Of a stretch of DNA of 28,224 nucleotides, positions 255 to 26,763 are shown in pieces; positions within the stretch are counted from its first letter, which is position 1, and the number at the start of each line of letters is the position of its first letter. The notes beneath the pieces were generated by a model. The model worked only from the letters and a program-made list of their open reading frames with translations, ran no database searches and was not told where the DNA came from. The DNA comes from a virus (lineage: Duplodnaviria > Caudoviricetes), in the IMG/VR virus record IMGVR_UViG_3300020438_000208, positions 1 through 28,224 of that record; one strand, written 5' to 3'. A program made the position numbers and the translations under genes.

Positions 255-3200
255 ATGGCTTTGACAAGACTTGACAATCTTATTAGTTCAAAAACTGGTA
301 AGTATTTGTATGTGTCTCCTGACGATTTCAACGCATCGGATGAGCTGAACAACAGGGGAAATTCCCCAATTAGACCATTTAAGTCTATTCAAAGAGCATT
401 TATAGAGATCGCACGATACTCTTACTTACCTGGAAGAGATAACGACAGGTACGATCAATTCACCATCATGTTGATGCCTGGTAAGCATTACATTGATAAC
501 CGTCCAGGATTAATAGACTCTAGTGGTATTGATGCCTTCCAGTTTGATCAAGCATTAAGTGAATGGACTGATAGTTCATCATTAGATATATCTGATCCAA
601 ATAACATACTTTATAAGTTTAACAACACCGAGGGTGGTGCTATTATCCCTCGTGGTTCGTCTTTAGTTGGTTACGATTTACGTAGAACTACTGTTCATCC
701 TCTTTATGTTCCTGATCCTGCTGATATGTTGGAGAAGCGTTCTGCTATCTTCAATGTAACTGGTGGTTGTTACTTCTGGCAGTTTACTATAAGGGATGGT
801 GATTTAGAACCTTCTTCACCATTGTATGATACTAATGATGGTATAGGTAAAGTTTATAATCAGACTCCTCCTGCTGGTAGTCCTGGTACTGCATGGACAC
901 AGTTAGAAATTCCTAACTTCTCTCACCATAAACTAACTGTATTTGAATATGCAGCTAAGGAAGAGTTAGGTATCTACTATCAGAAAGTTGCCAAGGCATT
1001 CTCTCAGTATCAACCAACGATTGATGATGCTGGTGAGTTTGGTGATAGAATTCAAGAGACAAGAATTGTTGGACCTCTATCAGATCTTCGTTCTATTGAA
1101 TCTATTAAGTGTACTGATCTTACTGGATTGAATGCAGGACAGATTGAAGTTGAAGTAACTACTAAAGTACAGCATGGTTATTTCAAGAGTCAGTTTATTG
1201 CTATTGAGAACAATGGTCTTGATGAAGAATTAAATGGTACTTTCTCCATTAATGAAATTTCTGATTCTGATCTAAGAGTATTTACATATAGAATATCAGG
1301 AACTGTTGCTGCTTTAGGATCTACTACTAATCTTGTTAGTGGTGTATCTTATTCTGCTGCTAATGGATTGGATGGAAATGCCGTAGTTAAAGCAGAGGTT
1401 GACTCTGTTGAATCTGCATCTCCATACGTATTCAACTGTTCTATCAGATCTACATGGGGTATTTGTGGTATATGGGCAAATGGTTTGAAAGCCACTGGTT
1501 TCAAATCAATGGTTATCGCTCAGTATACTGGTGTATCACTCCAAAAGGATGACAGAGCATTCATCAGATATGATGAGTATACCAATACATTTAATCAAGC
1601 ATCTCTAACAGATGCATTTGCAACAGTACCTTACCACACTAAGGGTGATGCATTCTGGAAGGATGACTGGAGAAACTTCCACGTTCGTGCATCAGATGAT
1701 TCATTCATTCAGTGTGTTAGTATCTTCGCTGTTGGTTTTGCTGATCACTTCCTAATGGAAAGTGGTGGTGATATGAGTATCACCAACTCTAACAGTAACT
1801 TTGGTAATACATCACTCCATGCTATCGGTCATAAGGGTTATTCCTTTAACCAAGATAAGGGTGGATATATTACAGACATCATTCCTCCTCAGGTTGTTTC
1901 TACTTCATCAGGAAACGTTAAGAAGAATGCTTACTATACAATAGACGTACAAGCATCTAATGATATTAATAACCACACCAAATTGTATGTTGGTGATGAC
2001 TTAGCATATGATCCTAAGAAACGTCCAGCAGCTACCATTGATGGGTATCGTATTGGTGCTAAACTAGATGATGAGATTAAAGTTAAACTTCAACCAAATG
2101 ATACTGGTTTTAATGAGTATAGTTCTACTCTAACACCAACTGGTTTTGATAAGTTTACTGTATCAGCAGAAATATTAAACCCATCAGGTTATACACCTAA
2201 TAATGCTAACCTTGATACTGCTAATAGGATTGAAGCAAATAAAGAATTCATTGCTTATGAAGCATATGGATATATCCTAGGTAAGTATCCTAATTTAAAA
2301 ATTAATGATAACATTGAGATAGTTAAGTGTCGTAGAGATATTGGTTATCTACTTGGTGCTACTATACAAGATTTAAGATTGGGTGGTAACATTAATACTA
2401 TTCAGGCTGCTGAATCTTACTATGTTCAGACTCAAGGAACCAGTGAACTTAGTTATATTACTGGGGAACTAACAGAAACATTAGAAGCATATGATTATGC
2501 TAGAGATCTAGCAATTGCTGCATCTCGTAACTTTGTGTATCTACGTCAAGGTTGTGAAACAGTTGCAACTTCTTCATTAGTTAATGTTGGTGACACAAGT
2601 GGTATCGTTCAAGGTATGACTGTTGCTGACTATGCACCTAGTGAGTTTGATGATTCACAAGGCAATTACAAAGGACAGTTAAAAGAAAATGCTACACGTC
2701 CTAACTCACCTGTTATTCCAGACAATACATTTGTTAAGCGTGTTGTTGACTCAGCAACTATTGAACTTGGAGTTAAGAATTTAACTGGAGAGAAGAAAGT
2801 ATTCTCTAATCGTCATGGTGATGCTGCTAATTTAATTGAAGCAAACAGAGCATTCATTGCTGCTGAAGCATTTGATAGGATGTCTACGTTTGATTTTCCT
2901 GGATATACATCACCTACAGGATATACATCACAAGATTGTCTTGATGACATTTCTGATGCATTGAAAGCAATTGAACAGAACATAGCATTTGGTGGTAATG
3001 CAGAGACATGGGATGCTGCATACCATTATGATAGTGGTGCTGTTGCATACTTAGATGCTAAGAAAGACGAAACTATACGTTGCTTTGAATATGCCAAGGA
3101 CATGGCAATTCAGGTAATGCGTAAGGAAGATGTATTTGTTTTTGGTAGTCATGGGTTAACTCAAGTTAAGACCACTGCACAACTCAACTCTTCTAATACT

Positions 3201-6200
3201 GCTATTGCAGATGCAAGTGATCCTATTACTAATGTAGCACCAGACCCAGTTAATGATAAAGCTGGTGATGCACGTAATTTAATCCTTGCTAACGCAGATC
3301 TTATTGCACATGAGTCTGTTGAAAGAATGCTTCTTCAGTCTTCTACAGAGAAGTTTACTCCAACTGCTGCTGCTTACAACCCTGCTAGTGGTGATTTAAC
3401 ACTGACTATTAATAGTCATGGACTTACAGGAGCAACAACTTTATCAGCATCTGATGCTGACTATACTGCAAGCACAGGTGTTCTTACAATTACATCTAAT
3501 GGTCACAGCATGGTTGAGGGTGAAAGAGTTCACATCACTGATGGATCTCTTACATTTACATGTGGTATGGATAGTAATACTACCACACATGCATACCCAA
3601 GAGCAACTGACCCTGTGTCTGGTAAATGGTTAGAGATTTCTAATGTAACTACCAATACATTTGATGTTCATGTTGGTGATTCACCTATAGTATCATTTAC
3701 TCCTACTGCTGCTGATTACAATCCAACAACAGGAGTTATGGAACTTACTGTTGGTGCTCATGGATTGACTGCTGGTACAAATATTAAGATTGCTCAGGAT
3801 TCATTAACATTTACTTGTGATCAAGATAGTAATGCAACAAATCATACTTATCCAAGAGCAACAGACCCAATCATTAATGGTGTTGCTATTCAGTCTGTAA
3901 CTGCTAATACAATTACAGTTCAGGTCTTAGCATCTGCACCTTCTACAAATGTCACAAACCATACATTTGTTAGTTCTTCTGCTAACTCAGTTGTAACTGG
4001 TGGTGATTATGTACACCAATTCTCAACTGCAACTGCTAGTGGTATTAAGAGAGAGAATGATGCTATTAGAATTGATTACAATGCTTTAACATTCACTTGT
4101 GGAATGGATGGTAATGGTAGTCAGCATACTTATCCTCGTGTAAGTGATCCTGCTGGTGGTGCATTACTTGCTGTTGGAGATACAACTGCTAACACAGTTA
4201 CAGTTAATGTAGGTAAGTCAGTAGAGAAGACTTATGACGTTGGTGATGCTACGTACAATCATACAACTGGTGATCTAACTCTAAGTATAAGCAACCATAA
4301 ACTATTAAAAGGACAGAGTATTAGATTAGCTGATAATTCTATCACATTTACATGTGGACAGGATGCTAATGCTACTAATCATTCTTATCCACGTTCAACT
4401 GATCCAGCATATCAGACAGCGTTACCAATTACATCTGTTGGTTCATCAAATCATACAGCAACTGGTGCTACATATGAACCTTCAAATGGTGTTCTAGAAT
4501 TAACTGTAGCAAATCATGGTTTTACAAACGGAGATCGCATAAAAATTTCTGAGGGTTCTTTGACCTTCACATGTTCGTTTGATAATAATCTTACAGAACA
4601 TGCATATCCAAGACTTAGTGATCCTAAGAATGATAAGTGGTTAACTGTATCAGATGCAACTGTTAATACTTTCAAAGTTAATGTTGATGCAGCAGGTGCT
4701 GATCAACAGTATACTCCAACAGATGCTGCATATGATCCTGCAACTGGTGATCTAACTCTTACTATTGGATCTCATGCATTATCACAGGGTGATGGTATTA
4801 CTATTGATAATGATTCATTGTCATTCACATGTACAATGGATGGTAATCAAGTTGCTCAGACATATCCACGTGCAGGTAAAGATCAGGCATCAGGAAGATC
4901 TCTTCCTATTAAATCTATAACTGGTACATCAGTTACAGTTAATGTAGGTGTGGCAGGTGATGATAAGTATTTCCAACCTACTGCTGGAACATATAATGCT
5001 GCTACTGGTGAGATGGTTCTTACTGTAGGACAGCATGGATTTGCAGTTGGTTCTGACATTACTCTTAAAGATAATTCTCTTACATTTAGTTGTGATAAAG
5101 ATGGTAATGCAACCAATCATTCCTATCCTCGTCCTGGTACTGACCCCTATGCTGGTAAGTCTATATCTGTAACAGCAGTTGGTTCCACATCACATACTGC
5201 TACTGGTGCTGTATATACTCCTACAACAGGAGCATTGTTACTTTCAATTGCTAATCATGGATTCTCTAATGGAGACTACATTCAGATTGCTGATGACTCA
5301 CTCACATTTACATGTGAATTAGATGGTGATACCGCACAGAAATCATACCCTCGTACTGGATTTGATTATCCAAGTGGAAGATGGTTGAAGATTTCTAATG
5401 TTGTTGCCAATGCTTTTGAAGTTAACGTTGGTATTTCTTCTGATACATCCAACCATTCATTTGTTTCAGCAACTGCTAGTGGCATTACAAGACAAGATGG
5501 AACATTTACAATCAATGTAGGTTTTGATGCTGATGCTAACAATCAGTATGCACATACATTTGTTAGTGCTCTTGCTGATGCTGTTGAGTATGAACCACAG
5601 TCTTTACATACATTTGTAAGTGCTGGTGCTAACTCAGTAAAACATCTTCCTCAATCTGCACATACATTCAAGAGGGGTGCTACTGGTGGAATACTTAAGC
5701 AAGGTGGAACCATTACAGTTAATGTTAATGTAGGTGCATCTGGTCAACAGTATCCACATACATTTGTGAGTGCTACTAGTGGTGCTGTAATATCTGGTGG
5801 ACAATATCCACACACATTTGTATCTGCTGTAACTGATTCAATTCATAAGATATTCTATGTTGGTGGAACTAATCCTGCTTCTAAGATCTATCATAGTAAA
5901 GACTGTGTTGATGATGTTGTAGATGTATTGAAAGCTGTTGCAGATAACGTAGCATACGGTGGTAACGATAAGACATGGGATGCTGCTTATTCATACAAGA
6001 CTGGTAATCATGTTGTTGGTGAAGAATCTGAGACTAATGTAGTCTTTGATTATGCTAAAGAGTTGGCTGCTCTAGTCAGCAGAAATCAGAAGATCCTTAC
6101 AATTGGATCTCATGGTTTGACTCAGAGTATCAACAGTCAAATTACAACTGACTTTGCTCAAACTGCTGATAATAAGGGTGGTGATGCGTACAATTTGATT

Positions 6201-9200
6201 CAATCTAATAAAGAATTTATTGCAGAAGAAGCATACGAAAGAATGATTCTTAACAATGCTGGATTCTTACCACCAACAGGTAATCCACAGGATTGTATTG
6301 ATGATATTGCTGATTTTGTTAATGAAGTATCATACAACGTAGGATTTGGTGGTAACGATAGAACTTGGGACATGGCAAATCTGTATGTAACAGGTGCTCA
6401 TGTTGCTGGTGAAGAAGAACAGACACTTGCTGCATTCAAGGATGCTACTGAGATAATGATTCAGGTGATGAGAAATGAAAAGGTTCTCGTTATTGGTTCT
6501 CATGGTGGCACACAAACATATGATAATAGTATTACATCGTATGTTGCTAATCCAATTAACAATAAGGTAGCTGATGCAAGAGATTTGATAATTTCCAATA
6601 AAAATTTCGTGGCAGAAATTGCTCTTGGAAGGATGATTGCACAGTATCCTTCATACACATGGCAGACTGGTTATAGTTCTACTGATTGTCTTGATGATCT
6701 TAAGGATGTAGTAGATGTTGTAGCACATAACTTAGCATACGGTGGTAATGATCGTGTATGGGATGCTGCTAACATGTATGTTGCTGGTGCTCATGCTGCT
6801 GGATCAGAGAATGAAACAATCTATGCATTCAATCAGGTTCGTGACCTTATAAGACAGGTCATGACAAATGAGGCAGTTACAGTTGGTGGTCATACATCAC
6901 TAGCACAAGCAACTGATACCTCTATTACTGATGGTGTTACTAATGGTGATTGTGATGCTCCAAAAGCAACTGTTACTTCTTTAGTACAGATTCTTACTAA
7001 TACTATCAGTACACCTTCTTCACTACTCAGTGTTACACGTACAGGTGCTACTTACAAGTGTCCTACTGTAGAGTCTGCAATTAATACATTATCTGACATT
7101 GTTACTAATGCTATATCAACACCTGAGAGTCTTGCTCCAATAGCTAGAGTTAGGTCTGCTGGTAAGTGTGAGGATGTAAGAAATTCTATTGATACGTTGT
7201 TTACTATCATTCAGAATACTATTACTACACCAACTTCACTTAATAGTATCACAAGAAGTTCTTCTAATGGTTCTTGTCAGAATGTAGCGTCTACTATTAG
7301 TACTCTGTTTGGTATTCTTACAACAACTATTAATGATGTTACATCAGCTAACCCAACAGGTTATCTTAATAGTATAGAGAGAAAAACATCACCAGAGGGA
7401 ATTTCTTTCGGTGCATCAGTTAATCCTAATACAACAACTACAAATAGTTACCTCTGGTTTACTTTACCAGCAGGTATATACGCTGATCCTACTCTATTCA
7501 CACCATCTACTGATACTTCAATTACTATTGATGCAGGTTATCCACAGTGTAATAGTCAGTCTGATGCTGTTCGTCAGTTCTTTGCTAACATCAAGACTAT
7601 TATTCAGAATGGTTTGAATAGTGTTCCTAGAGCACAGGCTGCTAGTGTTGGTGCTCTTTCAAATAGAGCAACACTATGGAAGATTGCTGGAACTAACCCA
7701 CATGGTTTAGAAACTGGTACTGCTGTACGTCTTGTTCCAAGACCTAAAGCTGGTTTTGATGTTGATAAGCGTAAGGTAAGACTACCGAATGGTTTTGAAA
7801 CTAACGAGAAATATTATATCATAGCATCTGGTAGAGATACATTGCCAGAAAATTACTCTGGTGTGTCACAATTTGATGGTACTGAGAACTCTCAAGTATA
7901 CTTCATGTTGGCAAGCAGTATAGAGAATGCTGCTGCTGGTATCTATCTACACTCTGCTGAAGTAGAGGCAATAGATCCTTATGTAGAAATTGATGTTTAT
8001 CAATTCATACTTGATGATAAGTATGATCTACACCAGTATGGTTGTAAGATGGATGGTGTAGTTCCTTCTGGTATTCGCACAGATATTCCTAACATCTTTG
8101 ACGTTCCTCATTCAAATACAGGATCACCTGCTAAGCCACCTACATCACATAAGGTATTCTTTAGAGAAGATACAGATAACATCAAGAAGTTACCTTCAGT
8201 TTCTGGTACGTATGCTCTTGACCCTGCTGTTACATTCCAAAGTGGATCTAAGCAAGGTAAGATTAGGGATGATAAGTTCTTCTATGTAAGATATGAGAAT
8301 GCTAAGGTATTTACAGTCTATAAGACAGCAGACTTAGCAGTACAAGGTCAGATTAAAATTGACTTTGCACCTGATAGTGGTAATACTTATGGGTTCTTTG
8401 TGTTTGCTGATAAGCGTCAGTCTCCAATGAGATTTGATCCATCATTTGATAATCCAAATGCAACTGAGATGGGTAAGTGGTACTTAAATGTTAAACCTAA
8501 CTCAGATGGAGCTAACACCAATACATCTATGGAGATATTGGCTAGACTTCATACTCAGGCATACAATCAGAACTCTGGACAAGATAAGACTAATGATACT
8601 TTCTTTGAAAGAATTACTGATGACAGAGAAGCTGATGAGCGTATCTATCGCTTCCGTTATGTTATTCCTAAGTATCTTAAGTCTGTTCGTGATCCTCTAA
8701 ACGGATTTACCATTAAGGTACGTAAGGATGAGACTAGAAAACTATTACCACAGAAGATAGTACTTAAACCTATTACTGGAACAGCAGTAGCACAGTTTGC
8801 TAACCCTAATCAATCTAATGAGAAAATTGGATTTACTCAAGCAGATTTTGATGACACAACTAATAATGTCAACGAAGATAATCAGTATGATCCATACAGA
8901 AAGGTTCTAGATAGTGATCCTGTTGGGTCTACATTTATTAAGAGAGTTGCTACTACCAATTATATTGGAATGACAGTTCAGTCTGGTAATTACTTTACTG
9001 AACAATCTAGTGGTGATACTCTTCTTGAGTTGACAGTATTTGATCCTAGCATTGATAATGCTGCACTTGCTAATGAAAAACTAACAACAGTTAAGATTAC
9101 TGCACCTGAGGGTGGTAGTACTGCTACTGGATTTACTTTCAGTAAGGATATTAAGCAAGATGATAATACACAACCTACATTTAATAAGGTTGTTTGGAAT

Positions 9201-15035: not shown

Positions 15036-15038
15036 TCA

Positions 15039-16463
15039 ATGGCAAGTTATAATCGTATTAAGGCAGCTCAGCATGTGCCTATTGGTACTATCATGCCTTG
15101 GACTGGTAGTTCGGGTACTGGAGACGAAGGAATAGCAGCTGGTTGGTTGATATGTAATGGATCTAAGAAAGGTTTATATGCTCGTGATTATCCTCTTCTT
15201 GCTAGGGTAGTCAAGAATACATATGGACCTTTTCCAGATCCAAATAACCCATCAGAACAGATTGGTGTTAATTTAGGAATAGTAAATGATTTTCCATATA
15301 ATCCACCTATCGGACACCCCGATCATGATGATACTAAACATGTTGATCAATTTGATTTACCTAATCTAAATCAGATTGCATTGATTGACATTGAGTCAAC
15401 TAGATTATCCAATGATGATTTAATTGTTGTTGGTAATTATCTTAGTACTAATGGTATGGAAGGAACTCAAGCACCAACATTAGTTAGAAGTGGTATAGAT
15501 CTTATATTTGATATTGAACCATCAAATACTCTTTCAGGTAGGATAACTGGTTTACTCATGGAAGATCCAGTATATTTTACAAGTGTGTATACTGTTCCTA
15601 GAAAATTAGGTATTGATCATACACCAGCTCATAGTCACAGACCAATGAGTGATGATTCTTTTGATCAATTCTATAGTGCATTTCCACAAGCATCTCCTGT
15701 ATTAGAATTTGTTCCAGGTAGAGCATTACCCGATCAATCTAATATTGTTTCAGTAGCACCAGTTGGACAGAAAAATAATGCTGATGCACCACATGCTTTT
15801 TCTACTCCTGGTGTAGCAAGAGTTACTTGGTATGATGGTGTAACTGAAAATTCTCATATAGGTGGAGAAACGAGTCAAATAGTACAAATTAACAAGACTA
15901 AATTACCAGATACAAACGTCTATCCTGGAACCCCTGCTCAAACAAGAACTATACCTCAAGCACATACATTAGTATCAGCTTATAGTGATGATTATAGTGG
16001 TGTTACAGACGTTGCTGTAGATGCTTTAACTGGATCATTTCCACCACCAGGAAGATATAGTGGTCAGAGAAACTATTATGCTTCTCCAGACATACCTGAT
16101 GTTCATAGAGGTGCTGATATGGGTGATGATTATATTGAGGATATGGTATATGATCCTGCTACTCAATCTCAACCTATAAATACTAATGGACCTTTTGCTC
16201 CTGCTGTGAATACTGGTAATACATTTACTACTACACTTAATCATGATGCAGAAAGATTTGCAAGTGCTGCTTTAAGATCTCACAGACATGATGCTATGGA
16301 GATATCAATGACTAAAGGAAGTTTAGGAATATCAACAACTACTTTAGTTAACAATGTGTCAACAGGAACAACATCGCCAGTATCGGTTGATAGTGCAATG
16401 ACAGTAACTATTAATCCAAATACACCCTCACAAACAATGATTTATATGATGAGGGCTTGGTAA
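15039..16463 (+). CDS. Tail-collar domain fibre protein (gp12/short-fibre-like), 474 aa
   Basis: Collar motifs PIGTIMPW, GWLICNG, YPLLARVV and FDLPNL; two HxH motifs (15630, 16281); C-terminal MIYMMRAW; SD AAGGAGG at 15024-15030. Confidence 0.85.
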   Translation: MASYNRIKAAQHVPIGTIMPWTGSSGTGDEGIAAGWLICNGSKKGLYARDYPLLARVVKNTYGPFPDPNNPSEQIGVNLGIVNDFPYNPPIGHPDHDDTKHVDQFDLPNLNQIALIDIESTRLSNDDLIVVGNYLSTNGMEGTQAPTLVRSGIDLIFDIEPSNTLSGRITGLLMEDPVYFTSVYTVPRKLGIDHTPAHSHRPMSDDSFDQFYSAFPQASPVLEFVPGRALPDQSNIVSVAPVGQKNNADAPHAFSTPGVARVTWYDGVTENSHIGGETSQIVQINKTKLPDTNVYPGTPAQTRTIPQAHTLVSAYSDDYSGVTDVAVDALTGSFPPPGRYSGQRNYYASPDIPDVHRGADMGDDYIEDMVYDPATQSQPINTNGPFAPAVNTGNTFTTTLNHDAERFASAALRSHRHDAMEISMTKGSLGISTTTLVNNVSTGTTSPVSVDSAMTVTINPNTPSQTMIYMMRAW

Positions 16464-17851
16464 TGGCAGTATTCTATAATAAACAAAAAGGAATACATGG
16501 ATCATTAACTGGTACTATTATATCTTTTCCAGTTGAAGTTAACACAGAAGATCCAGCACAGTCTGTTGCTAGAGCAAAACTACCAGCAGGGTATATGAGG
16601 TGTGATGGTAGAGTTTTAACTAATGAAGACTATCCAATGTTAGCAGTTGTATTGGGTACAGGTGAAACATCTAAATTTAAAAAAACATCTCAAACATTAT
16701 CGGATGATCAATTCCAACTACCAGATTTAAGAAGTAAACATATTAGAGCAACTACATCATCCAACATTGGTACTTTTAATGATCTTACTGTAACAGATTC
16801 TGCTGGCAATGAGCAAGTAAAATCTGGTGTTCAATTAGATGTATTGTTGAATGTTGATACTCCATTTACATTGAATTATAATGGATCATTTTATATTCCA
16901 CCTCAAACACAGGAATTAAGAGGAGAACCATCCTTTGCTGTTGAGACAGGTTCATATACATTCTATGCTGAAGTTCCTGCAAATGGATTTCAACCACATA
17001 TGCATAGAACTAATACTCAAAGAGCAAGACAAGTAGATGCAGGTGGAAATCATTTTAGTTCTAGACAAATAAACTCAGTTAGAACCAAAAGTACATTGAA
17101 TGTATGTAAGTGGTGGGAGTATGCTAAACAGGATTTATGTTACTGGTATTATACTGGTGTTGTAGCACCTGGATCAGGTGGTAGGAATGTGGAACCTACT
17201 TCATATGAAGATCAATACGGTGCGTGTTGGAATTCTTGTTCTAATTTTATTCAACAAGGATTGTGTTTATGGCCAGACAGTACAACATGTGATAATGTTC
17301 CTATAGATAGGTGGCATGTACGTGCTGGAAATAATGGTTGTAATCATGGTAACGTTCCACCTTTTCCTGGATATGGTGATACAACATGGGGTGCTGTAAC
17401 ATATCCTCGTACTTATACACACTCATGTGTTTGTACTTCTCCTATTCAAATTTTTGGATGTCCTGGTGGTATTAATGGTTCAACCATAGAAGATGTTAAG
17501 AATGGTCCTGGAAATGATGGATGGACTACACTGGAAGCAGGACTACCAACTGATCTACAAGGTGATATAAATTTACCAATGGCTCCATTGGATGATGCTT
17601 ATCAAGTTGGTTATGCTGCTGTTAGTAATGTTCATAGTTTAACAGGTGAGTGGGGAAATGATGGTAATCACAGACATAGATTAGACTTCAATTCTGATAT
17701 TGCCCATACTTTTGTTATGAATACAAGAGCATCTACTGCTAGAGCAGATGCTGGTCTTGTGTCTAAAATCACTTTAGCAACAAACGATGCTCCAAAAGCA
17801 GATAAATATATACAACCATACGTTGTAACAGAGTATTTTATTAAGATCTGA
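16463..17851 (+). CDS. Tail-collar domain fibre protein with Cys-rich tip, ~462 aa
   Basis: Collar motifs TGTIISF, PAGYMRCDG, YPMLAVVLG and FQLPDLR; HxH at 16997 and 17669; C-terminal QPYVVTEYFIKI. Start placed at ATG 16463 (TAATG overlap) rather than TTG 16457. Confidence 0.85.
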   Translation: MAVFYNKQKGIHGSLTGTIISFPVEVNTEDPAQSVARAKLPAGYMRCDGRVLTNEDYPMLAVVLGTGETSKFKKTSQTLSDDQFQLPDLRSKHIRATTSSNIGTFNDLTVTDSAGNEQVKSGVQLDVLLNVDTPFTLNYNGSFYIPPQTQELRGEPSFAVETGSYTFYAEVPANGFQPHMHRTNTQRARQVDAGGNHFSSRQINSVRTKSTLNVCKWWEYAKQDLCYWYYTGVVAPGSGGRNVEPTSYEDQYGACWNSCSNFIQQGLCLWPDSTTCDNVPIDRWHVRAGNNGCNHGNVPPFPGYGDTTWGAVTYPRTYTHSCVCTSPIQIFGCPGGINGSTIEDVKNGPGNDGWTTLEAGLPTDLQGDINLPMAPLDDAYQVGYAAVSNVHSLTGEWGNDGNHRHRLDFNSDIAHTFVMNTRASTARADAGLVSKITLATNDAPKADKYIQPYVVTEYFIKI

Positions 17852-20800
17852 TGGCGACATATAAGCAAGGAAATACATTTGATACATCAGGGAATGTAAC
17901 GGGTGTCACTGAAACTCCAAACTGGTATAGCGATAAGGCAGGGTCTTATGGCACAGTTGGTGCTATCGTGCCAGTATTGGTTAACGATTATAGTGACAAT
18001 ATAGGAACAATTGAAGCACCTCATTATGCTAATAGAGGGTACTTATATTGTGATGGAACATCATATAATATTAGAGACTATCCCTTACTATATGAAATAG
18101 TTGGTAATGAGTATCTAACACCATCAGAGTTAATTGATTCAAACTCATATACTTTTACTGCTACTGGTGAATCAGGTTCTATTTTTAGAACATTTATTGA
18201 TGGTACTGACATATATGCAGAAGTATATAAGTATGAATATACACCACCAGGATCATCAACTGCTATCAAGCAACGTGCAATACCACATGAGTCAAGATTA
18301 AGGTTTGTTGGTTCTCTTGGATCTTTCCCTGCTGGTGCTACTAATATATTTGAAGCAGATAAAGATTATTATCTAGAGTATAATCCAACATATCAAAATC
18401 TTTCAACAAGACAAGATACTACAGTACATAGAATATTAGTTAACCAAGCAATATCAAATACTACGACTGTAGTAACAACGACTGTACAGGTTAATTGGAC
18501 TATCAGTTCTGGAACTCTTATTGTACCATCTGGTACAGATCAATATTATATTTTACCAATAGAATATTATGGTACTGTTCCTGAAGCTGTGCCAGGATCA
18601 ATCAATGCTCAGACTGGATTACCATACCTTAGTGGGTATACTTCATACGAACCAAACGCATTAAATTATAGTCCTGAATTTAATTGGGGTAATTTAACTG
18701 GAATGCCTGATGGTGTTGATATTGATTCTTATGAAATATATCTTCAGAATATGTCATTGCAAGATATGGTGCAATGGCATGTAACAGGTATTCCTGCTAG
18801 TGTTACGACTTTGCAAAGTAATGCTGTATTGCCAACTGGTGCAGTTATACAACCCAATACAGTATCACAATCATCTGTTCAACCACCAGCAGGTACTCCT
18901 GCTTCGTGGATTAGAGATAGTGGATACTCAGGACCACAACCAGAGGGAGGTGAGAAACATCTTTATAGATTTAATGTTATTGCTAAACTGTCAAATGGAC
19001 AGGATCTAATACAGAGTATAGATTTTACCGCAGGTAATGGTTCGTTGATACCAACGTATAGTGGTAATCCTAATTACACTAATAATCTTACCATAACTGG
19101 TGTAACTAGTAATGTAACTGATAATATTTTTAACATAGAGTGGGGTACTCTTGGTCCATATACTAAGGATGCACAAGGAAATGTAACAGGACATCCTAAG
19201 GCAAGAATTAGAAAAGCATATAGTCAAACAGATTATCCATATGTATTAGGAACATTTAGAGTACCAGATTATAGAGACAGGAAGTTAATTGGATATGGTG
19301 AAGGTGTTGAGGGTGCAGGTACTCCACTTGTAGAAGCACGTGCAACAGTAAAAGTTGGTGATATCGGTGGTAAATGGTATATACCAACCACTACAATAGA
19401 TGATCCAGCAGAGTTCTTTACTATTAGTGATGTTGTAACATCAGGTTATAGTGATATACAGACTCAAGTTCAAGCATATTTAACTGGTGAAAAGAAATTT
19501 GTTGTCGGACCTATACAAGACTATGTTTTCAATAGACCAGCAACACATGATCATCAAATTCTTCGTAGTGAAGTAGATGAGCAGAATGAAGTATCGTTAG
19601 GTGGTCTTGATAGATTCACTACTTCATATCGTAATATTAAAGGTACTGTATCAACATTCATACCAGGCACATCAGATGAGATTGCGTTAGGTCATTCTCA
19701 TGGTCTAACATCATATAGACCAACAAACTCTTCTACTGCAACCTATGGTAATATTGCTGGTATTGGTGACTACAGTGCTAGTTCTGCTGGAACTATAGGA
19801 CAAGAATCATGGACAACGCCAGGTAGTCATACATGGACTGCACCAACAGATGTTACTTCTGTTTGTGTAGTAACAGTTGGTGGTGGTGCAGGTGGTGCAG
19901 GTGGAACAAAAGGTGGTGGTGGTGCTGGTTTAGGATATACCAACAATATCACTGTCGTTCCAGGTCAGACGTATAATTTATTTGTAGGTGCTGGTGCAAC
20001 TGGTGGTGCTGCTTCTACTGGTGATCATCCAGGACAAGATAGTTATTTCATTGATAGTACCACATGCTTAGGTAAAGGTGGTGGTACATCAACTGCTGGT
20101 GATTCATCTAGTTATGGAACATTTGTTGGTGATGGTGGTGGTAATGGAGATCCATCTTCTGCTAATGGTGGTGGAGGTGGAGCTGGTGGATATGCTCTTA
20201 ACCAAGGTGGTGGTGGAGTAGGAACTGATACAGATGTCACTGGAGGTGGTGCAGGTGGTGGTGGAGTAGGTCTTAAAGGACAAGGATCTACTGGTTCTGA
20301 TGGATCCCCTAGTACACAATCCACACAAGGTGGGATAATGCAGGGTGGTAGAGGTGGATCAGGTGGTACAAATGGTGGTAATACTATTGCACCATCAGAA
20401 CAAAATGCTACTAATCCAACTGCTGCAATAGGACAACAAGCATTTACAACTGCTGGTACATTTGATTGGGTAGCACCAGCTGGTGTTACTGAGGTAGACG
20501 TAGTAGCAGTTGGTGGAGGATCAGGCGGTGGACAACAAAGTAATGGTGGTGCTGGTGGTGGACTAGGATATAAAAACTCAATATCTGTGACTCCTGGTAA
20601 TACCTACCAAGTGATAGTCGGTTCTGGTGGTGCTGGATCAGTTAATACTCTTGGTGCTGCTGGTGGAGATAGTTATTTTATTGATACTAACACAGTAAAA
20701 GGTGGAGGTGGAACAGCAAATGGTACAGGTGGTACTTATGCTGGTGCAGGTGGTGGTGTTGGTGGTGCTAAAACACAATATGGATCTGGTGGTGGTGCTG

Positions 20801-23800
20801 CTGGATATTCTGGAAATGGTGGTGGTGGAACAGTAGTAGATGGATCAGGTGGTGGTGCTGGTGCTGGATCCGCATTTACTGGAGCAGTTGGTGGTGGTGC
20901 TGGAGGTGGTGGTGTTGGTATAACTGGTATCGGTGCTAGTGGTTCTGCTGGCAATCCACCTACTACATCAACACAGAATGCTATGATGTTGGGTGGTGGT
21001 GCTGGATCTGGAGGTAATACTGGAGGTAATGCAACTTCACCAACTTTATCAGATTCATGGGTATTAAGTAACGATACTGGAAGTAATTGGTCTTTCTGGT
21101 CTACTTTCATGAATGATTACGCCATTTATAAATCAATACCAGCTAATAATGCTACTGATCCATATCGTAATGCAATACAAGGTAATAGTCATACTTTTAA
21201 TGTTGCTCAGAGTGGAAATCTTAGTATTGAAGTACAATGTGATAATGAAGGAACTGTTAGTTGGGATGGTGTTGCCCTTGGTGGTGGTGGAGTAGAAGCA
21301 AGAGGTCAGGCAGAATTTACAACAGCAGGTTCACAGAATTGGACAGCACCTGCTGGTGTGACATCAGTAGCAGTTGTAGCGGTTGGTGCTGGTCAAGGTG
21401 GTGGTAATGATAACTCTGGTGGAGGCGGTGGTGGCCTAGGATATAAGAATAGTGTAACAGTCGTTCCAGGTCAGTCATATACAGTAGTCGTTGGACAAGC
21501 TGGATCAGGAACAACAGGATCACAAGGTAATGTTGGTGGAGATAGTTATTTCATTAATGCTACCACAGTAAAAGGTGGTGGTGGTAATAATGGTGTTGGT
21601 GGAACCTATGTCGGTGATGGAGGAGGTGTAGGTGGTGGAAAAGGTTCTGCTGGAGGTGGTGGTGGAGCCGCTGGATATTCAGGATCAGGTGGATCTGCTT
21701 CTAATGCTACTGGACAAGGCGGTGGTGGTGGAGTTGGTAGTTCAACTACTGTAACTGGCACAGGTGCTGGATCAGGTGGTGGTGGTGTAGGAATATATGG
21801 TCAAGGAAGTTCAGGTGCTGGTGGTAGTCCAGTTGTACAAAACTCAGCAAGTTCAGCAATGGGTGGTGGACAAGGTGGATCAGGTGGTACTGCTGGTACT
21901 TCAATTACATCTCCTTCTTCATCAGGTGGTGCTACTCCAACTCCTGCTGTTGGTCAAGCAGAATGGACAACGCCAGGTACATATACATGGACAGCACCTA
22001 CTGGAGTTACTGAAGTTTCTAGTGTAGCAGTTGGTGCTGGTGCTGGTGGTGTTCAGAATGGTTCAGGTGGTGGTGGTGGATTAGCTTGGCGTAATGCGAT
22101 TCAAGTCACACCAGGACAGACGTATACTGTGGTCGTTGGTGCTGGTGGTGCTGGATCATCTTCTGGTAGTTCTACTAATGCGAATAGAGGTGGAGATAGT
22201 TATTTTATTGATATAACCACGTGTAGAGGTGGTGGTGGTGGATGGGCAAGTGGTTCAATCACAACTGGTGGTGGTTATGTAGGTCAAGGTGGTGATAATG
22301 GAGATACAGTTTCTGCCTATCAAGGTGGAGGTGGTGCAGGTGGATATTCTGCTGGAAATACTGGTGGAGGTGGTGGCACAGGTGCAGGTAGTGCTTGTAA
22401 TTTTGGTGGTGCTGGTGGTGGAGGAGTAGGAATATATGGTCAAGGTGCTAGTGGAAATCAAAATGTTACTTCCTATTCATGTATATCAACAAATTATGGT
22501 AGAAGGGTAGAAGGTGGTACTGGTGGATCAGGTGGTTCTGACGGAGAAGATAGTCCAAGTGGTATGCCTTATCTAAGTGCTAGTCACTGGGAACGTTCAG
22601 GTCCATGGCCTACTGATGGTTCATGGGGTTCTACTAACTATTGGTCTCAGTTCATGAATGATTGGGCTGTATGTAGAGCAAAGCCAAATAATCTTAATGA
22701 TCCTTATCCTTGGAATGGAGTTGCTGATCCTTGGGGTAAAATATTTGATGTTCCAAGTACATTAAATCAAGTATATCTTGATGTGCAGGTTGATGATCAA
22801 TGTACTATAGGTGTTGGTAAAGTTACAACTAATGTTGGTTACTCTGGTATACAATGGTCTCTTACCAATCAGTTGCAACAAGCTACTGATGGTAGAGTAA
22901 CATATAACTTAGGAACTCTTACTGCTGGTAGACATTATATACTTGGTACTTTGACTAACACTGGTACTGGTGCTTGGAATGGTCCCAACCCTTGTGGTCT
23001 TGCGTGGATAATATATACAAATCCAAATGACAAGTGGGGATCTATGATCCTTGACTCACTTGACATGGCTAGTGGTCCTTTTAGTACTCATACTGATTTT
23101 GATGGTGGTAATGGTGGTGCTATCGGTGGTGGAGGTGGTGCATGTAATATTGGTGGTGGAGTACCTGCTGGTGCTGGATATATTGGTGGAGATGGTGGTG
23201 ACGGTGCTGTAAGAATTATGTGGGGAACAGGTAGATCATTCCCTAGTACATTAACTACTGATCAAACACCACAAAATTATAATCCTGGAACTGGTACATC
23301 ATATGGATCAGTCGCTGGTGGACCTGGCGGTGGATATGGTGGAGGTGGTGGTGCTGGATATGGTGGAAGTTCACCATATGAAGGTGGTGCTGGTGGTATG
23401 GGTGCGGTAAGAATTATTTGGGGATCAGGTAGAACATTCCCATCAACAGATACTCAAGATGTAACAACACAATCTTATGTTGCTGGTCAACCAAGCATTG
23501 TTAGTACTTTCTTTGGCGATCCAAGTGTAATATATGATCTTGGTAACGTTACTGCTGGTGATCATACCATAGGATTTACATGTAAGAATACAGGTAATGC
23601 TGATGCTTGGTCTCTAAATCCTGCTGGTATTGCTTGGTCTGTTCATTCTACAGGTAACACAGGAAATAAATTACAGACATCAGCTGATGCTGTTGGTGCT
23701 GCTGGATGGACATCATATGCTGGTGGTGATGGTGGAGATAATGGTGGTGGAGGTGGAGCTGGATATAACCTCGCTGGTGGTGATGGAGGAGATGGTGCTG

Positions 23801-26763
23801 TAAGAATTATGTGGGGTGGAACAGGTAGACAATACCCATTGAATGCATTTGATCAGACACCACAAAATTATAATCCTGGTGGTGCAGGAACATTTACACC
23901 TATGACTGGTGGATTTGGTGGAGAAGTTGGTGGTGGTGGAGGTAGTGGATACACTTCTGCTGGTGGAAAAGGTGGTGATGGTGGAGTCAGAGTTATTTGG
24001 GGTGATGGTAGAACATTCCCTAGTGATGCTGAAGATGTAACTGGTTCAAGTGGTGGTTGTTTAAATTATAAGATTACTGAAGCACCATCTATCGCTATTA
24101 ATAGTGTAGAAAGTGATGGTACTAAAATTACATGTGTTACTGCACTAGATCACGGATTTGCTGTTGGTGATTGGATAACATTCTTGGATGTTGGTACAGG
24201 ATATAATGGTACACATCAAATTATTGCTGAAGGATATAATACAAATACATTTAAAGTAGAACCATATAGTAATGCACCTGTTGCTGGTACTGGTGATGCC
24301 ACTGGTAAAGTTAGAGAAGCAGCAGGTTATTTCACTGATGTTACATCAATACCAGATCCTAAGGTTTGGGTAGTTGATGATCAAACTAGAATAGGTGGTA
24401 AACCAATAGTATCACAATCACCTGATGATTATGAATCAGTTCCAGGATATGAAGCGGTACTAACAAGTTCAGGAACTATTACTAAGAGTCTTGCAAGTGG
24501 AACTGATAAGGTAAGAAGATATAGCATACAAATGACTGCACCTGGTGGTGGAGGTGGTGGTTCACAAGGAAATGGTGGAACTGGTGGAAATGCATCTGTA
24601 ACCTTTGACTATATTATTAATGGAGTAAAATCACAATATACAATATATGCTTATGGTGGTACAGGTGGTACTGCTGGTAGTTCAGGTGGTGCTGGTGGTG
24701 CTGGTGGAGGATTCTTAGTTCCTTCTGCATTGGTTAGTGATCCAAACTTTAGTATTAACACTCAATTGGTTGGTAATGATGGTGCTAATGGAGGTTCTCC
24801 TGATCAGTCAACTCCTCAGGGTGGAATAGGATACACTCAAGGTAATGCTATATTAGTTGGTGCTGGTGGTAATGGTGCATATAGTACAACACCTAATTTA
24901 GGTAGTTTCCAAAGAAACTTTACTTCTAATGGAGCATTTAATGCTGCTACTGATCCATCAGTTCCTGCTGGTTCTGCTGTTGTTTATATTGATATTGATG
25001 CATCAGGTGGTGCAGGTGGTGATGGTAACTCTCAAAGAAGAGCAGGTTGTCAAACTCAGTCATATCTTAACAGTTCAGGATCTACACAAACTGGTGTAGG
25101 TGGTACTGGTGGACAAGGTAGACGAGTAACAGGTAGAACATCTAATAGTAATAGTTTTACATTCACTATTGGTTCTGCTGGTGGAAATGGATATAATAAT
25201 ACAGAGGGAACAACTGGTGAACCAAGAAATAATAATGTAGGTACTGGTGCTTCATCTGGTGGATATGGTGGTAGTGGAGCATGGGGTAATGGTTCTGCTG
25301 CTGGTGCTGGTGGAGGAGCAACTTCAGTCTTAGCTGGAGGTGGATATATTCTTGGTGCTGCTGGTGGCGGTGGCGGTGGAGGAGGAGGCGGTGGATTCAA
25401 TGGTGGTTCAATCTACGATAAGTGTTGGACTGGTGGACCAGGTAATCCCCCTGCACAAGCATTATTGTCTACTCAATCTATTGGATTCGCTTCTGGTGCA
25501 GGTGGTGGTGAAGGTGGTTGCACAGCAGGTGGTGGAGGTGGAGGTGGAGCAGGTGCTGGAACCTCAGGATCTGGTGGATCTTCTGGAGTTGCTGGTGCTG
25601 GTCACGTTAATACTGGATCAGGATCTGGTGGTTATGGTGGTCAATCTGCATACAATAGCAATTATATTACTAACGCAACTGAAAGTGCTGGATCAACTGG
25701 AAATGGATATGTCAACTTCACAGTTCATCATGAAGGTAACCAATTAGATCCTTCAGGTGGTGGTGGTGGAGCTGGTGCTACATTATTAATTTCTTGGGCA
25801 TTTGAAGATGTTGATGGTGCAACTGATATTGTTGCTAGTCTCGGTAATGTTGGTAATGGTGGAACTGGTGGTAACTCACAATCTGGATCAGCAGGGTATA
25901 TAATAGTAGATGCAGAAAAAATTCTTGAAGGAAGTGAAAATGCTCCTACTGGATATACTGCAGCTAGAGGAAATGTTTATGAAGTTCCTGGTTATCCTGA
26001 TGCACCAATTTGGCCTGCAACTTCATCTCTTAGTGGTGGTGCTATATGGCACAGTGCCAGTGACGATGTAATTACAGTTCTTCCTGCAACTGGTACTTTC
26101 CCTGCTCATTCAACACAAGCAAGTAAATTTATTAAGTTTGTTGGTGAAGGTAATAGATACCTACAATTAGGTGGATTTAATTTAATTTCAGCAGAAGAAT
26201 TAGTATTCTATATTATTAAAGGTGATGGTACTAATGGTGGTGATACACCAGAGGAAGACTTAGCATTATACTATAAACTCAATCTTGACGCACCTAATGA
26301 TACTTTAGTACAAGTTATTGCTAGTATCACTGAAACTGATCAAGGATGGAAAAAGTATACTTATACTATTAGTGATAATGATCCTATAAAACAAAGTAGT
26401 GTATTTTTAATATTACGTCAGGTTAGACCATCTAATTCTGGTAGTGACTGGGATGATGATGGTGCTGATGTGTGGGGTCTTGCTGAATTTGGTATTAAAT
26501 ATGGTGAGGTTACAGCACAAGTATTCACACCATCTACTAATTCTGAAATACCAGGAAATACAGGAACATGTGGACCTGATACTGGTATAGATGTTGTTAG
26601 AAAGACTGTTACTGCTTCACAATCTAATATTAGATTTACTGATGGTACATTTGCATTGTCTTCATCAACACCAATATCAATTAGTGCAACAGCAACACCA
26701 GAAGAGAATATACCTCTTGCAACTAGATACCACAGAGCTAAATACCTTATAAAAGCATTCTAA
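17851..26763 (+). CDS. Large tail-collar fibre protein (2970 aa) with nested glycine-rich and putative carbohydrate-binding domains
   Basis: Split collar domain (GYLYCDG...YPLLYEIVG at ~18037-18114; GTFRVPDYRDR at ~19249); HxH at 19546 and 19693; six Gly-rich domains; C-terminal KYLIKAF like the two upstream paralogues; TGATG overlap with the previous gene. Confidence 0.85.
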   Translation: MATYKQGNTFDTSGNVTGVTETPNWYSDKAGSYGTVGAIVPVLVNDYSDNIGTIEAPHYANRGYLYCDGTSYNIRDYPLLYEIVGNEYLTPSELIDSNSYTFTATGESGSIFRTFIDGTDIYAEVYKYEYTPPGSSTAIKQRAIPHESRLRFVGSLGSFPAGATNIFEADKDYYLEYNPTYQNLSTRQDTTVHRILVNQAISNTTTVVTTTVQVNWTISSGTLIVPSGTDQYYILPIEYYGTVPEAVPGSINAQTGLPYLSGYTSYEPNALNYSPEFNWGNLTGMPDGVDIDSYEIYLQNMSLQDMVQWHVTGIPASVTTLQSNAVLPTGAVIQPNTVSQSSVQPPAGTPASWIRDSGYSGPQPEGGEKHLYRFNVIAKLSNGQDLIQSIDFTAGNGSLIPTYSGNPNYTNNLTITGVTSNVTDNIFNIEWGTLGPYTKDAQGNVTGHPKARIRKAYSQTDYPYVLGTFRVPDYRDRKLIGYGEGVEGAGTPLVEARATVKVGDIGGKWYIPTTTIDDPAEFFTISDVVTSGYSDIQTQVQAYLTGEKKFVVGPIQDYVFNRPATHDHQILRSEVDEQNEVSLGGLDRFTTSYRNIKGTVSTFIPGTSDEIALGHSHGLTSYRPTNSSTATYGNIAGIGDYSASSAGTIGQESWTTPGSHTWTAPTDVTSVCVVTVGGGAGGAGGTKGGGGAGLGYTNNITVVPGQTYNLFVGAGATGGAASTGDHPGQDSYFIDSTTCLGKGGGTSTAGDSSSYGTFVGDGGGNGDPSSANGGGGGAGGYALNQGGGGVGTDTDVTGGGAGGGGVGLKGQGSTGSDGSPSTQSTQGGIMQGGRGGSGGTNGGNTIAPSEQNATNPTAAIGQQAFTTAGTFDWVAPAGVTEVDVVAVGGGSGGGQQSNGGAGGGLGYKNSISVTPGNTYQVIVGSGGAGSVNTLGAAGGDSYFIDTNTVKGGGGTANGTGGTYAGAGGGVGGAKTQYGSGGGAAGYSGNGGGGTVVDGSGGGAGAGSAFTGAVGGGAGGGGVGITGIGASGSAGNPPTTSTQNAMMLGGGAGSGGNTGGNATSPTLSDSWVLSNDTGSNWSFWSTFMNDYAIYKSIPANNATDPYRNAIQGNSHTFNVAQSGNLSIEVQCDNEGTVSWDGVALGGGGVEARGQAEFTTAGSQNWTAPAGVTSVAVVAVGAGQGGGNDNSGGGGGGLGYKNSVTVVPGQSYTVVVGQAGSGTTGSQGNVGGDSYFINATTVKGGGGNNGVGGTYVGDGGGVGGGKGSAGGGGGAAGYSGSGGSASNATGQGGGGGVGSSTTVTGTGAGSGGGGVGIYGQGSSGAGGSPVVQNSASSAMGGGQGGSGGTAGTSITSPSSSGGATPTPAVGQAEWTTPGTYTWTAPTGVTEVSSVAVGAGAGGVQNGSGGGGGLAWRNAIQVTPGQTYTVVVGAGGAGSSSGSSTNANRGGDSYFIDITTCRGGGGGWASGSITTGGGYVGQGGDNGDTVSAYQGGGGAGGYSAGNTGGGGGTGAGSACNFGGAGGGGVGIYGQGASGNQNVTSYSCISTNYGRRVEGGTGGSGGSDGEDSPSGMPYLSASHWERSGPWPTDGSWGSTNYWSQFMNDWAVCRAKPNNLNDPYPWNGVADPWGKIFDVPSTLNQVYLDVQVDDQCTIGVGKVTTNVGYSGIQWSLTNQLQQATDGRVTYNLGTLTAGRHYILGTLTNTGTGAWNGPNPCGLAWIIYTNPNDKWGSMILDSLDMASGPFSTHTDFDGGNGGAIGGGGGACNIGGGVPAGAGYIGGDGGDGAVRIMWGTGRSFPSTLTTDQTPQNYNPGTGTSYGSVAGGPGGGYGGGGGAGYGGSSPYEGGAGGMGAVRIIWGSGRTFPSTDTQDVTTQSYVAGQPSIVSTFFGDPSVIYDLGNVTAGDHTIGFTCKNTGNADAWSLNPAGIAWSVHSTGNTGNKLQTSADAVGAAGWTSYAGGDGGDNGGGGGAGYNLAGGDGGDGAVRIMWGGTGRQYPLNAFDQTPQNYNPGGAGTFTPMTGGFGGEVGGGGGSGYTSAGGKGGDGGVRVIWGDGRTFPSDAEDVTGSSGGCLNYKITEAPSIAINSVESDGTKITCVTALDHGFAVGDWITFLDVGTGYNGTHQIIAEGYNTNTFKVEPYSNAPVAGTGDATGKVREAAGYFTDVTSIPDPKVWVVDDQTRIGGKPIVSQSPDDYESVPGYEAVLTSSGTITKSLASGTDKVRRYSIQMTAPGGGGGGSQGNGGTGGNASVTFDYIINGVKSQYTIYAYGGTGGTAGSSGGAGGAGGGFLVPSALVSDPNFSINTQLVGNDGANGGSPDQSTPQGGIGYTQGNAILVGAGGNGAYSTTPNLGSFQRNFTSNGAFNAATDPSVPAGSAVVYIDIDASGGAGGDGNSQRRAGCQTQSYLNSSGSTQTGVGGTGGQGRRVTGRTSNSNSFTFTIGSAGGNGYNNTEGTTGEPRNNNVGTGASSGGYGGSGAWGNGSAAGAGGGATSVLAGGGYILGAAGGGGGGGGGGGFNGGSIYDKCWTGGPGNPPAQALLSTQSIGFASGAGGGEGGCTAGGGGGGGAGAGTSGSGGSSGVAGAGHVNTGSGSGGYGGQSAYNSNYITNATESAGSTGNGYVNFTVHHEGNQLDPSGGGGGAGATLLISWAFEDVDGATDIVASLGNVGNGGTGGNSQSGSAGYIIVDAEKILEGSENAPTGYTAARGNVYEVPGYPDAPIWPATSSLSGGAIWHSASDDVITVLPATGTFPAHSTQASKFIKFVGEGNRYLQLGGFNLISAEELVFYIIKGDGTNGGDTPEEDLALYYKLNLDAPNDTLVQVIASITETDQGWKKYTYTISDNDPIKQSSVFLILRQVRPSNSGSDWDDDGADVWGLAEFGIKYGEVTAQVFTPSTNSEIPGNTGTCGPDTGIDVVRKTVTASQSNIRFTDGTFALSSSTPISISATATPEENIPLATRYHRAKYLIKAF
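19795..24060 (+). repeat. Four Gly-rich domains (GQ...TT.G...W.AP..VT.V.VV.VG ... G.VR[IV][IM]WG) plus two WS.FMND...NP.G.AW domains, nested
   Basis: Openers at 19795, 20428, 21301 and 21949; closers with VR..WG at ~23209, 23407, 23800 and 23986. Confidence 0.9.

Follow-up and report, generated by a model that had tools for sequence, protein, structure and literature searches.

How a very long phage protein can be built from domains that appear to be broken is the question raised by this locus. In two giant genes of the window (the whole stretch of 28,224 nucleotides analysed here), runs of C-terminally truncated domains, termed openers, are followed by stacks of the missing C-terminal pieces, termed closers. 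A sequence-only reading had proposed that such proteins grow by insertion of domains into the loops of homologous domains rather than by tandem duplication; its observation is confirmed by our analysis and its interpretation is partly supported. The window carries six consecutive genes on the + strand, namely a small ORF and the following five:

255–15035, + strand: protein A, a 4926-aa tail-fibre-type virion protein of a T4-like cyanophage, with a helical/beta nest at residues 651–2462
15039–16463, + strand: neighbouring collar-domain protein of 474 aa (Pfam Collar E=1.2e-4, under the curated cut-off; phrog_4591)
16457–17851, + strand: neighbouring collar-domain protein of 464 aa (Pfam Collar E=3.7e-7)
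17851–26763, + strand: protein B, a 2970-aa collar-type fibre protein that hosts a Gly-rich/lectin-like nest
26766–27713, + strand: neighbouring tail fibre assembly chaperone (Pfam Phage_tail_APC E=1.7e-10)

PHROG assigns protein A to tail fibre families. A search with its first 645 residues matched 454 phage records, almost all from Synechococcus or Prochlorococcus myoviruses. The same gene order as in the window is found in S-WAM2, ACG-2014e, ACG-2014h, Sf-CH1b and Syn1. Judged from gene content and order, the window is the fibre module of a T4-like cyanophage. A tRNA search found none in it, and a PDB sequence search with the N-terminal domain of protein A gave no match. The C-terminal domain of the same protein (14595–15032) shows faint similarity to the N-terminal portion of the proximal subunit of a long tail fibre (9f4a, E=0.15) and is a possible baseplate anchor. 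At loci L059–L062, genes resembling 2OG-Fe(II) oxygenases/prolyl hydroxylases are interleaved with fibre and chaperone genes downstream of the fibre genes and might act in fibre modification.

The repeats of protein A were cut into four motif tokens with PSSMs (false-hit rate on shuffled sequence no higher than 0.07 per 1000 residues, with a looser setting adopted later for closers), and the strings were read with an exact edit-cost parser; greedy parsing cascades after one missed token. The string of protein A is HgeHgeH aabcabc)) bc ababcabcababc) c)))c)) geHgeHge ]]]]], in which openers and closers are balanced, as had been claimed, at 5/5 for the helical and 8/8 for the beta units. Under a last-in-first-out (LIFO) grammar it parses at edit cost 0 with a token depth of 9, whereas the first-in-first-out reading gives 9 violations. 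An assembly artefact is ruled out for protein A by a contig from another metagenome with the identical string, and locus L001 carries the same string. Token and profile matching confirmed a nest of five phycobiliprotein-fold domains (H1–H5), eight small beta-barrels (B1–B8) and one further beta domain (X), arranged as follows:

2205–2546, + strand: H1 opener, the outermost phycobiliprotein-fold domain; the last closer alone extends its profile match from 3–102 to 3–150 of 159 positions
2550–2780, + strand: X opener, beta-rich, lying within H1 and interrupted in turn by the entire H2–H5 nest
2811–3245, + strand: H2 opener (token PSSMs, profile matching)
3258–3344, + strand: first helix of H3, after which the beta nest is inserted
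3345–4223, + strand: beta-barrel B1 with its two insertion sites, the side branch B2 enclosing the intact B3, and the B2 closer
4224–5492, + strand: openers of the beta-barrels B4, B5, B6 and B7 and the intact innermost B8 (5190–5492)
5493–5852, + strand: five stacked beta closers, long, short, short, long and short, read as those of B7, B6, B5, B4 and B1 (length-class rejoining, model and complex)
5886–6164, + strand: remainder of H3
6174–6548, + strand: H4 opener
6564–7046, + strand: H5, the intact innermost phycobiliprotein-fold domain
7050–7388, + strand: closer helices of H4, H3 and H2 (H3/H2 order inferred), each beginning with a Cys aligned to phycoerythrin beta Cys158
7395–7640, + strand: X closer, then H1 closer

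Since X sits between H1 and H2, the nest is ten domains deep (H1, X, H2, H3, B1, B4, B5, B6, B7, B8); the arm branches because B1 has two insertion sites. Residues 1–650 and 2465–4926 gave no match to the three repeat profiles, and a PDB sequence search with the beta unit returned nothing (best E=0.066).

The helical unit has a globin-like fold and matches phycobiliproteins in a PDB profile search (E=8.5e-5). The opener Cys, with the Asp downstream, aligns to Cys82 of phycoerythrin beta (the beta-82/84 site), and the closer Cys is matched to Cys158 in 3 of the 4 alignments shown, each time in a weak second stretch. The C-x-x-D motif is retained in 131/134 distinct openers and the Cys in 153/156 closers. 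A disulfide between the two was considered and dropped, as they align to separate bilin sites. These positions allow a different reading of the helical arm, as a pigment carrier and not just a stalk, in which lyases of the host or the phage, CpeT for example, would attach bilins to both conserved cysteines of each unit. In 5/5 fetched isolate loci with a close orthologue of A, and also in three IMG/VR loci, cpeT-like genes are found no more than about 2 kb upstream of that orthologue; T-type lyases act on Cys-beta155 according to a passage of PMC2327270. Against this, P-HM1 has a cpeT near a fibre devoid of helical units, and L051, with 2 kb of upstream sequence, has no cpeT match; the window itself offers 254 bases upstream of A. 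The N-terminal dimerisation helices used for alpha-beta pairing are absent, unit matches starting at beta-chain residue 33–35, and the Cys50/61 site is not retained. Bilin loading of the arm is best regarded as possible at odds well short of even, from alignments and gene neighbourhood. We consider slightly more doubtful still the full combination, in which a fold-independent grammar of recursive insertion (four folds, more than ten deep) would carry a chromophorylated globin-fold trunk, its closer Cys served by the orphan CpeT, and hence pigmented branched arms.

The cpeT-like genes were located at L058:5191–5715, in L059, L060, L061 and L062, and at L019:1849, L020:767 and L053:490, and the one near the P-HM1 fibre is at L156:39–443. 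The role of phage cpeT is described as unresolved in passages of PMC3037559 and PMC10452541; the conserved bilin-site cysteines make the fibre units a candidate substrate for this unexplained lyase.

Whether each closer completes a distant opener, and in which order, was addressed with profiles built from intact units (150 beta, 37 helical and 44 Gly-rich). The openers alone hold about 60–85% of a unit. In the 105-position beta profile, drawn from the 150 intact units of other loci, they span positions 2–82 or 2–73, B4 and B7 ending one strand before the others, and the match extends to position 102–103 only once a closer of the right length class has been joined on. Across the stack of five closers, LIFO pairing fits the lengths in 5/5 cases and first-in-first-out pairing in 1/5. 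This two-length order is one of 10 possible arrangements, and since 32/300 within-stack shuffles reach cost 0, protein A alone gives P ~0.1 for the order. H1 is extended by the last closer only, and H2 is not extended by that closer. Closers of the same class are interchangeable in the profile test, so the pairings H2/H3, B5/B6 and, in protein B, G1/G3 are not fixed by sequence. Pairing by similarity to intact units was uninformative for the Gly-rich units and merely suggestive for H1, H2 and the beta units. Cysteine covariation was likewise rejected as a pairing marker, the cysteines being near-invariant and their losses not paired; these rare losses, in single openers or closers, occur in L019, L050, L059, L061 and L026.

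Homologues of protein A also bear on the order. Among 35 complete distinct homologue strings, 31 are altered by shuffling, and in 31/31 of these the LIFO cost lies under the shuffle mean; reversing the closers raises the cost in 30/31. These tests are not independent, because the homologues are related. With the original tokeniser 4/35 strings parse at cost 0, and after refinement eight architectures do so. The strings of L026, L038, L039 and L058 retain unexplained costs of 9–14, and in four other proteins missed closers are visible by eye. Together with the zero cost of protein A and its length classes, these data bear out the proposed LIFO order wherever it can be tested. Opener and closer counts co-vary: over 33 strings with 1–26 beta units they correlate at r=0.98, being equal in 13 and within one in 27, and the helical counts are equal in 30/33. 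The two kinds of piece thus do not vary independently, and the content of the nest is swappable between relatives, as anticipated.

How the nests grow can be read from gaps between relatives. In alignments of nine homologues at 58–69% identity, 27/30 indels of at least 25 aa are multiples of about 104 aa and fall at recurring sites, a sign that most growth came from single insertions of whole units; the global alignment of L060 (30% identity) was excluded from this count. Of the three others, two flank B3 in L054, total 111 aa and represent a true paired gain, and the third, of 25 aa, is ambiguous. The expected joint gain of an opener with its closer was thus found in this one case, single contiguous insertions otherwise accounting for the pattern. 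In 4/4 isolate phages examined the two halves of X with the flanking parts of H1 (A residues 686–842 and 2381–2462) are adjacent or at most 18 residues apart; there the inner nest instead interrupts H1 behind its first helix. Rejoined relatives and whole-unit indels agree with the proposed insertion into loops of homologous domains, and the hosts include unrelated domains as well.

The nest is not a constant part of the fibre. The orthologous fibres of P-SSM4, P-HM1 and P-SSM2 (3/3) keep the N-terminal domain of A and later segments but lack helical and beta units altogether; about 160–220 residues stand there in place of about 2,100 in A, so the nest is an optional arm. The idea that nesting is a general way of building these fibres is contradicted by this absence and by the two long parts of A that match none of the three repeat profiles. 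The claim that both termini stay at the virion outruns the data: the ends of each nest meet, and protein A runs on for 2,460 residues that match no repeat profile. An A orthologue of 6613 aa at L003:116–19954 has 26 beta units and is ~13 deep by tokens. Helical and beta nests also occur in other giant genes (L063:307–20760, L010, L026–L039), and in ACG-2014d a 6817-aa gene that follows baseplate gp6 carries both, so the modules are common to several virion genes.

Protein B shows the same scheme with other folds. Its relevant parts are:

18118–19245, + strand: about 360 inserted aa, among them a PBP/YbhB-like domain (PF01161 E=4e-7), which split the N-terminal collar-like region
19795–21048, + strand: Gly-rich openers G1 and G2 (Pfam Gly_rich_2)
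21049–21300, + strand: L1 opener, the first half of a lectin-like beta domain, colinear with the intact L2 and with L065 542–617
21301–22566, + strand: Gly-rich openers G3 and G4
22567–23091, + strand: L2, the intact innermost lectin-like domain (a PA14-like assignment is a lead only)
23092–24042, + strand: closer stack G, G, L1, G, G
24439–25920, + strand: further Gly-rich region, a possible G5(G6) nest (shuffle test not significant)

By the same matching, protein B was confirmed to nest four Gly-rich and two lectin-like domains six deep, with a bracket count of 6/6, L1 being split and L2 intact. The Gly_rich_2 match (PF21722) has E=2e-29 and 103.6 bits against a curated cut-off of 24.3. The four Gly-rich openers span positions 1 to 212–214 of the 255-position profile from the 44 intact units, the four closers span about 203–255, and any closer brings an opener to 255. 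The two halves of L1 are colinear with the intact L2 and score 168 when joined versus 89 and 97 alone; the score of the L1 closer is reached by 0/500 shuffles. Rejoined halves thus gave near full-length profile matches in both proteins, as had been predicted. The order of domain types in B is palindromic and so cannot alone test the closer order. In L065 there is a single G(L) unit, onto which G2, the first and closing halves of L1 and the following closer map in order; this comparison supports closure of G2 and G4 directly after their lectin-like guests, the closer order of G1 versus G3 being ambiguous from sequence.

The block of residues 648–2068 is absent as one piece in five B orthologues; L073 has about 9 aa at this place and L070 about 150 aa. 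The flanks of the ~360-aa insert (residues 24–109 and 466 onward) are adjacent in L065, and a 79%-identical orthologue that aligns end to end rules out an assembly artefact for B. For the possible G5(G6) nest at 24439–25920, the observed scores were reached by 54/300 and 16/300 shuffles; the sequence-only reading, whose coordinates include this region, is confirmed for the main nests of A and B only. A tblastn search of the B nest against isolate phages gave two short matches, the low-complexity filter being the probable cause. The L2 region has no Pfam match; its second match in the ESM Atlas scores 0.95, with PA14 on 13% of the members of that cluster and a recognition score of 2281, below 2300. 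Nesting of G in G at a different site is visible by eye in collar-free unrelated proteins at L082:7250–11896 and L097:7901–12427. Positions 24058–24405 of protein B encode a single FCCH-like barrel (Pfam E=0.005) that may be distantly related to the A beta unit. With the phycobiliprotein-type, barrel, Gly-rich and lectin-like units, four folds are found nested across the two genes, in line with the three or more that had been claimed.

We examined two segments of protein A with AlphaFold as single chains, the structural alignments being read as range ends. The segment comprising H4, H5 and two closers was modelled with a pLDDT of 89.8 and a pTM of 0.85. All of the 50 listed matches are phycobiliproteins (Z 15.4–17.7): H5 (model residues 132–282) aligns to phycocyanin beta 34–172, and H4 together with the second closer (range 2–318) aligns to the same residues in 2 of the 50 (Z 15.8–16.2, rmsd 2.0–2.2 over 130 residues; best Z 16.2, rmsd 2.0). 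In the model of B6(B7(B8)) (pLDDT 92.4, pTM 0.78), the strands 153–164 and 261–271 cross the joint between B7 and B8, the range 1–315 is aligned to single barrels in 12 of 50 listed matches, and the similarity of B8 to endosialidase and FCCH barrels has a Z of 8.0, which is the 'possibly common arrangement' level of the tool. A BFVD model of the homologous segment in another gene, an ACG-2014d structural protein, superimposes with a TM score of 0.85 over 314 columns. When the B4 opener and its own closer were modelled as two chains, the score was 0.60 versus 0.02 for the best control, with runs agreeing on at least 95% of contacts and a partner pLDDT of at least 70. This is weak support, as the mark for a complex is reached by 116/157 solved and 2/215 mismatched pairs, 18 solved pairs and both mismatches lying at or below 0.60. 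The models predict that split domains, here H4 and the B6 and B7 barrels, are completed by distant closers within one chain and that the joints are two-stranded, in agreement with the proposed out-and-back path of the chain.

We infer that A and B each contain a block of domains nested loop in loop, LIFO where testable, forming a branched, out-and-back side arm, as predicted, on an ordinary cyanophage fibre scaffold, with host reach and grip as its likely function (probability about 0.85). The bracket structure, the completion by distant closers, the rejoined relatives, the whole-domain indels and the absence of the block in some orthologues were established from sequence and homologues; an adhesion role is likely from the annotation and the weak PA14 lead. 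In the proposed mechanism, recombination would place an in-frame copy of a complete domain, one with closely spaced ends, in a loop that tolerates it. Because each single insertion adds a balanced block, the brackets stay balanced and only nested order arises. The chain would run outward through the openers and back through the closers, giving two strands per joint, and folding would close the innermost unit first and then proceed outward. Stiffness of the stalk may come from the barrels and globin-fold units, and binding from the Gly-rich and lectin-like units; such a stiff branched stalk would widen the reach of the particle and present these binding modules to the host surface.

The same pieces could alternatively complete one another across the subunits of an oligomeric fibre, or with crossed pairing, to give a domain-swapped rope. 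Phage fibres are usually trimers, the single-chain models with their range ends are compatible with swapping between chains, and same-class closers score interchangeably; the ambiguous G1/G3 order and the weakly scoring two-chain B4 complex also suit such a rope. We nevertheless consider it improbable, since the order of length classes and the pairing of H1 fit LIFO, single contiguous insertions of intact units yield nested order only, and in the single-chain models, which are of high confidence, the domains close. Less probable still, and largely refuted computationally, is that the truncated units are complete smaller domains in tandem and the closer stacks a separate repeat domain: the openers do hold most of a unit, but the intact units of all three profile sets end in a closer, relatives have the halves rejoined, the models place closers inside the fold of the opener, and opener and closer counts co-vary.

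If the nested arm is correct, its variation between close relatives means that the evolution of nesting can be watched. An opener that awaits its closer up to ~1,650 residues later poses a testable folding question, and the nests could serve protein design as natural out-and-back scaffolds that tolerate insertions. Because split domains defeat linear profiles, these abundant marine phage proteins are nearly blank in Pfam.

Several known systems share parts of this architecture. The helical units resemble phycobiliprotein beta subunits (PF00502; 7tja_B, 6y3d, 4h0m) in their globin-like fold (Z 16–17, rmsd ~2) and in the cysteines at both bilin-site positions, and differ in being repeated, split and nested, in lacking the N-terminal dimerisation helices, and in receiving their last helix from up to ~1,650 residues downstream. 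The best fold matches of the beta unit are the phage endosialidase barrel (4hiz) and the FCCH domain of ubiquitin-activating enzyme (4p22; PF16190), at a borderline Z of 8.0 (rmsd 2.5–2.7 over 78–82 residues; ESM Atlas E1_FCCH lead 0.92); these are single domains, whereas the fibre barrels are nested in themselves six deep. Unlike in Gly_rich_2 (PF21722), the last ~45 profile positions are displaced in protein B by nested G and lectin-like inserts. Contractile tail sheath proteins, described in PMC6088184 (citing Aksyuk et al. 2009) as 'Russian doll' domains I–IV, are also phage-tail proteins with domains inserted in one another; as described there, they have two to four non-repeated domains and homologous repeats are not self-nested.

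The closest parallel is Si3 of the cyanobacterial RNA polymerase beta' subunit (RpoC2), whose crystal structure, as reported in a passage of PMC10895346, shows eight copies of one small domain, four of them with elements from distant chain regions. In both systems one small domain is recursively inserted in its own copies, several of which are assembled from distant chain segments, and an elongated arm, known for the fibres as predicted models only, emerges from a loop of a host protein. The whole nest is optional here too, being absent from 3/3 distant A orthologues and five B orthologues. Among 2.7 million classified domains, a 2026 survey singles out a six-level nest to illustrate extreme complexity, and its text names close termini as a property of inserted domains (PMC13114784). 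The supposition that nesting this deep had not been described therefore needs correction, since six levels are known for Si3 (PMC13114784, PMC10895346), and stands in that the fibres go deeper. In a literature search that covered few subscription journals, neither nesting nor phycobiliprotein-fold units were found for cyanophage fibres. According to these sources Si3 has eight sandwich-barrel hybrid motifs in six levels, versus ten domain levels in A and ~13 token levels in the L003 orthologue. The fibres nest four folds in themselves and in each other, with copy numbers of 1–26 between relatives, and their host proteins belong to phage tail-fibre families, whereas Si3 lies in the trigger loop of RNA polymerase beta'. 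As to the sandwich-barrel hybrid fold of Si3, the top matches of the repeats among those listed are globin-like proteins and FCCH/endosialidase-type barrels, and a relationship to an unlisted family is conceivable. The fibre nests thus work like Si3 and yet are no member of it: recursive self-nesting was already known from Si3 and tail sheaths, and the cyanophage fibres represent a deeper, multi-fold form of it.
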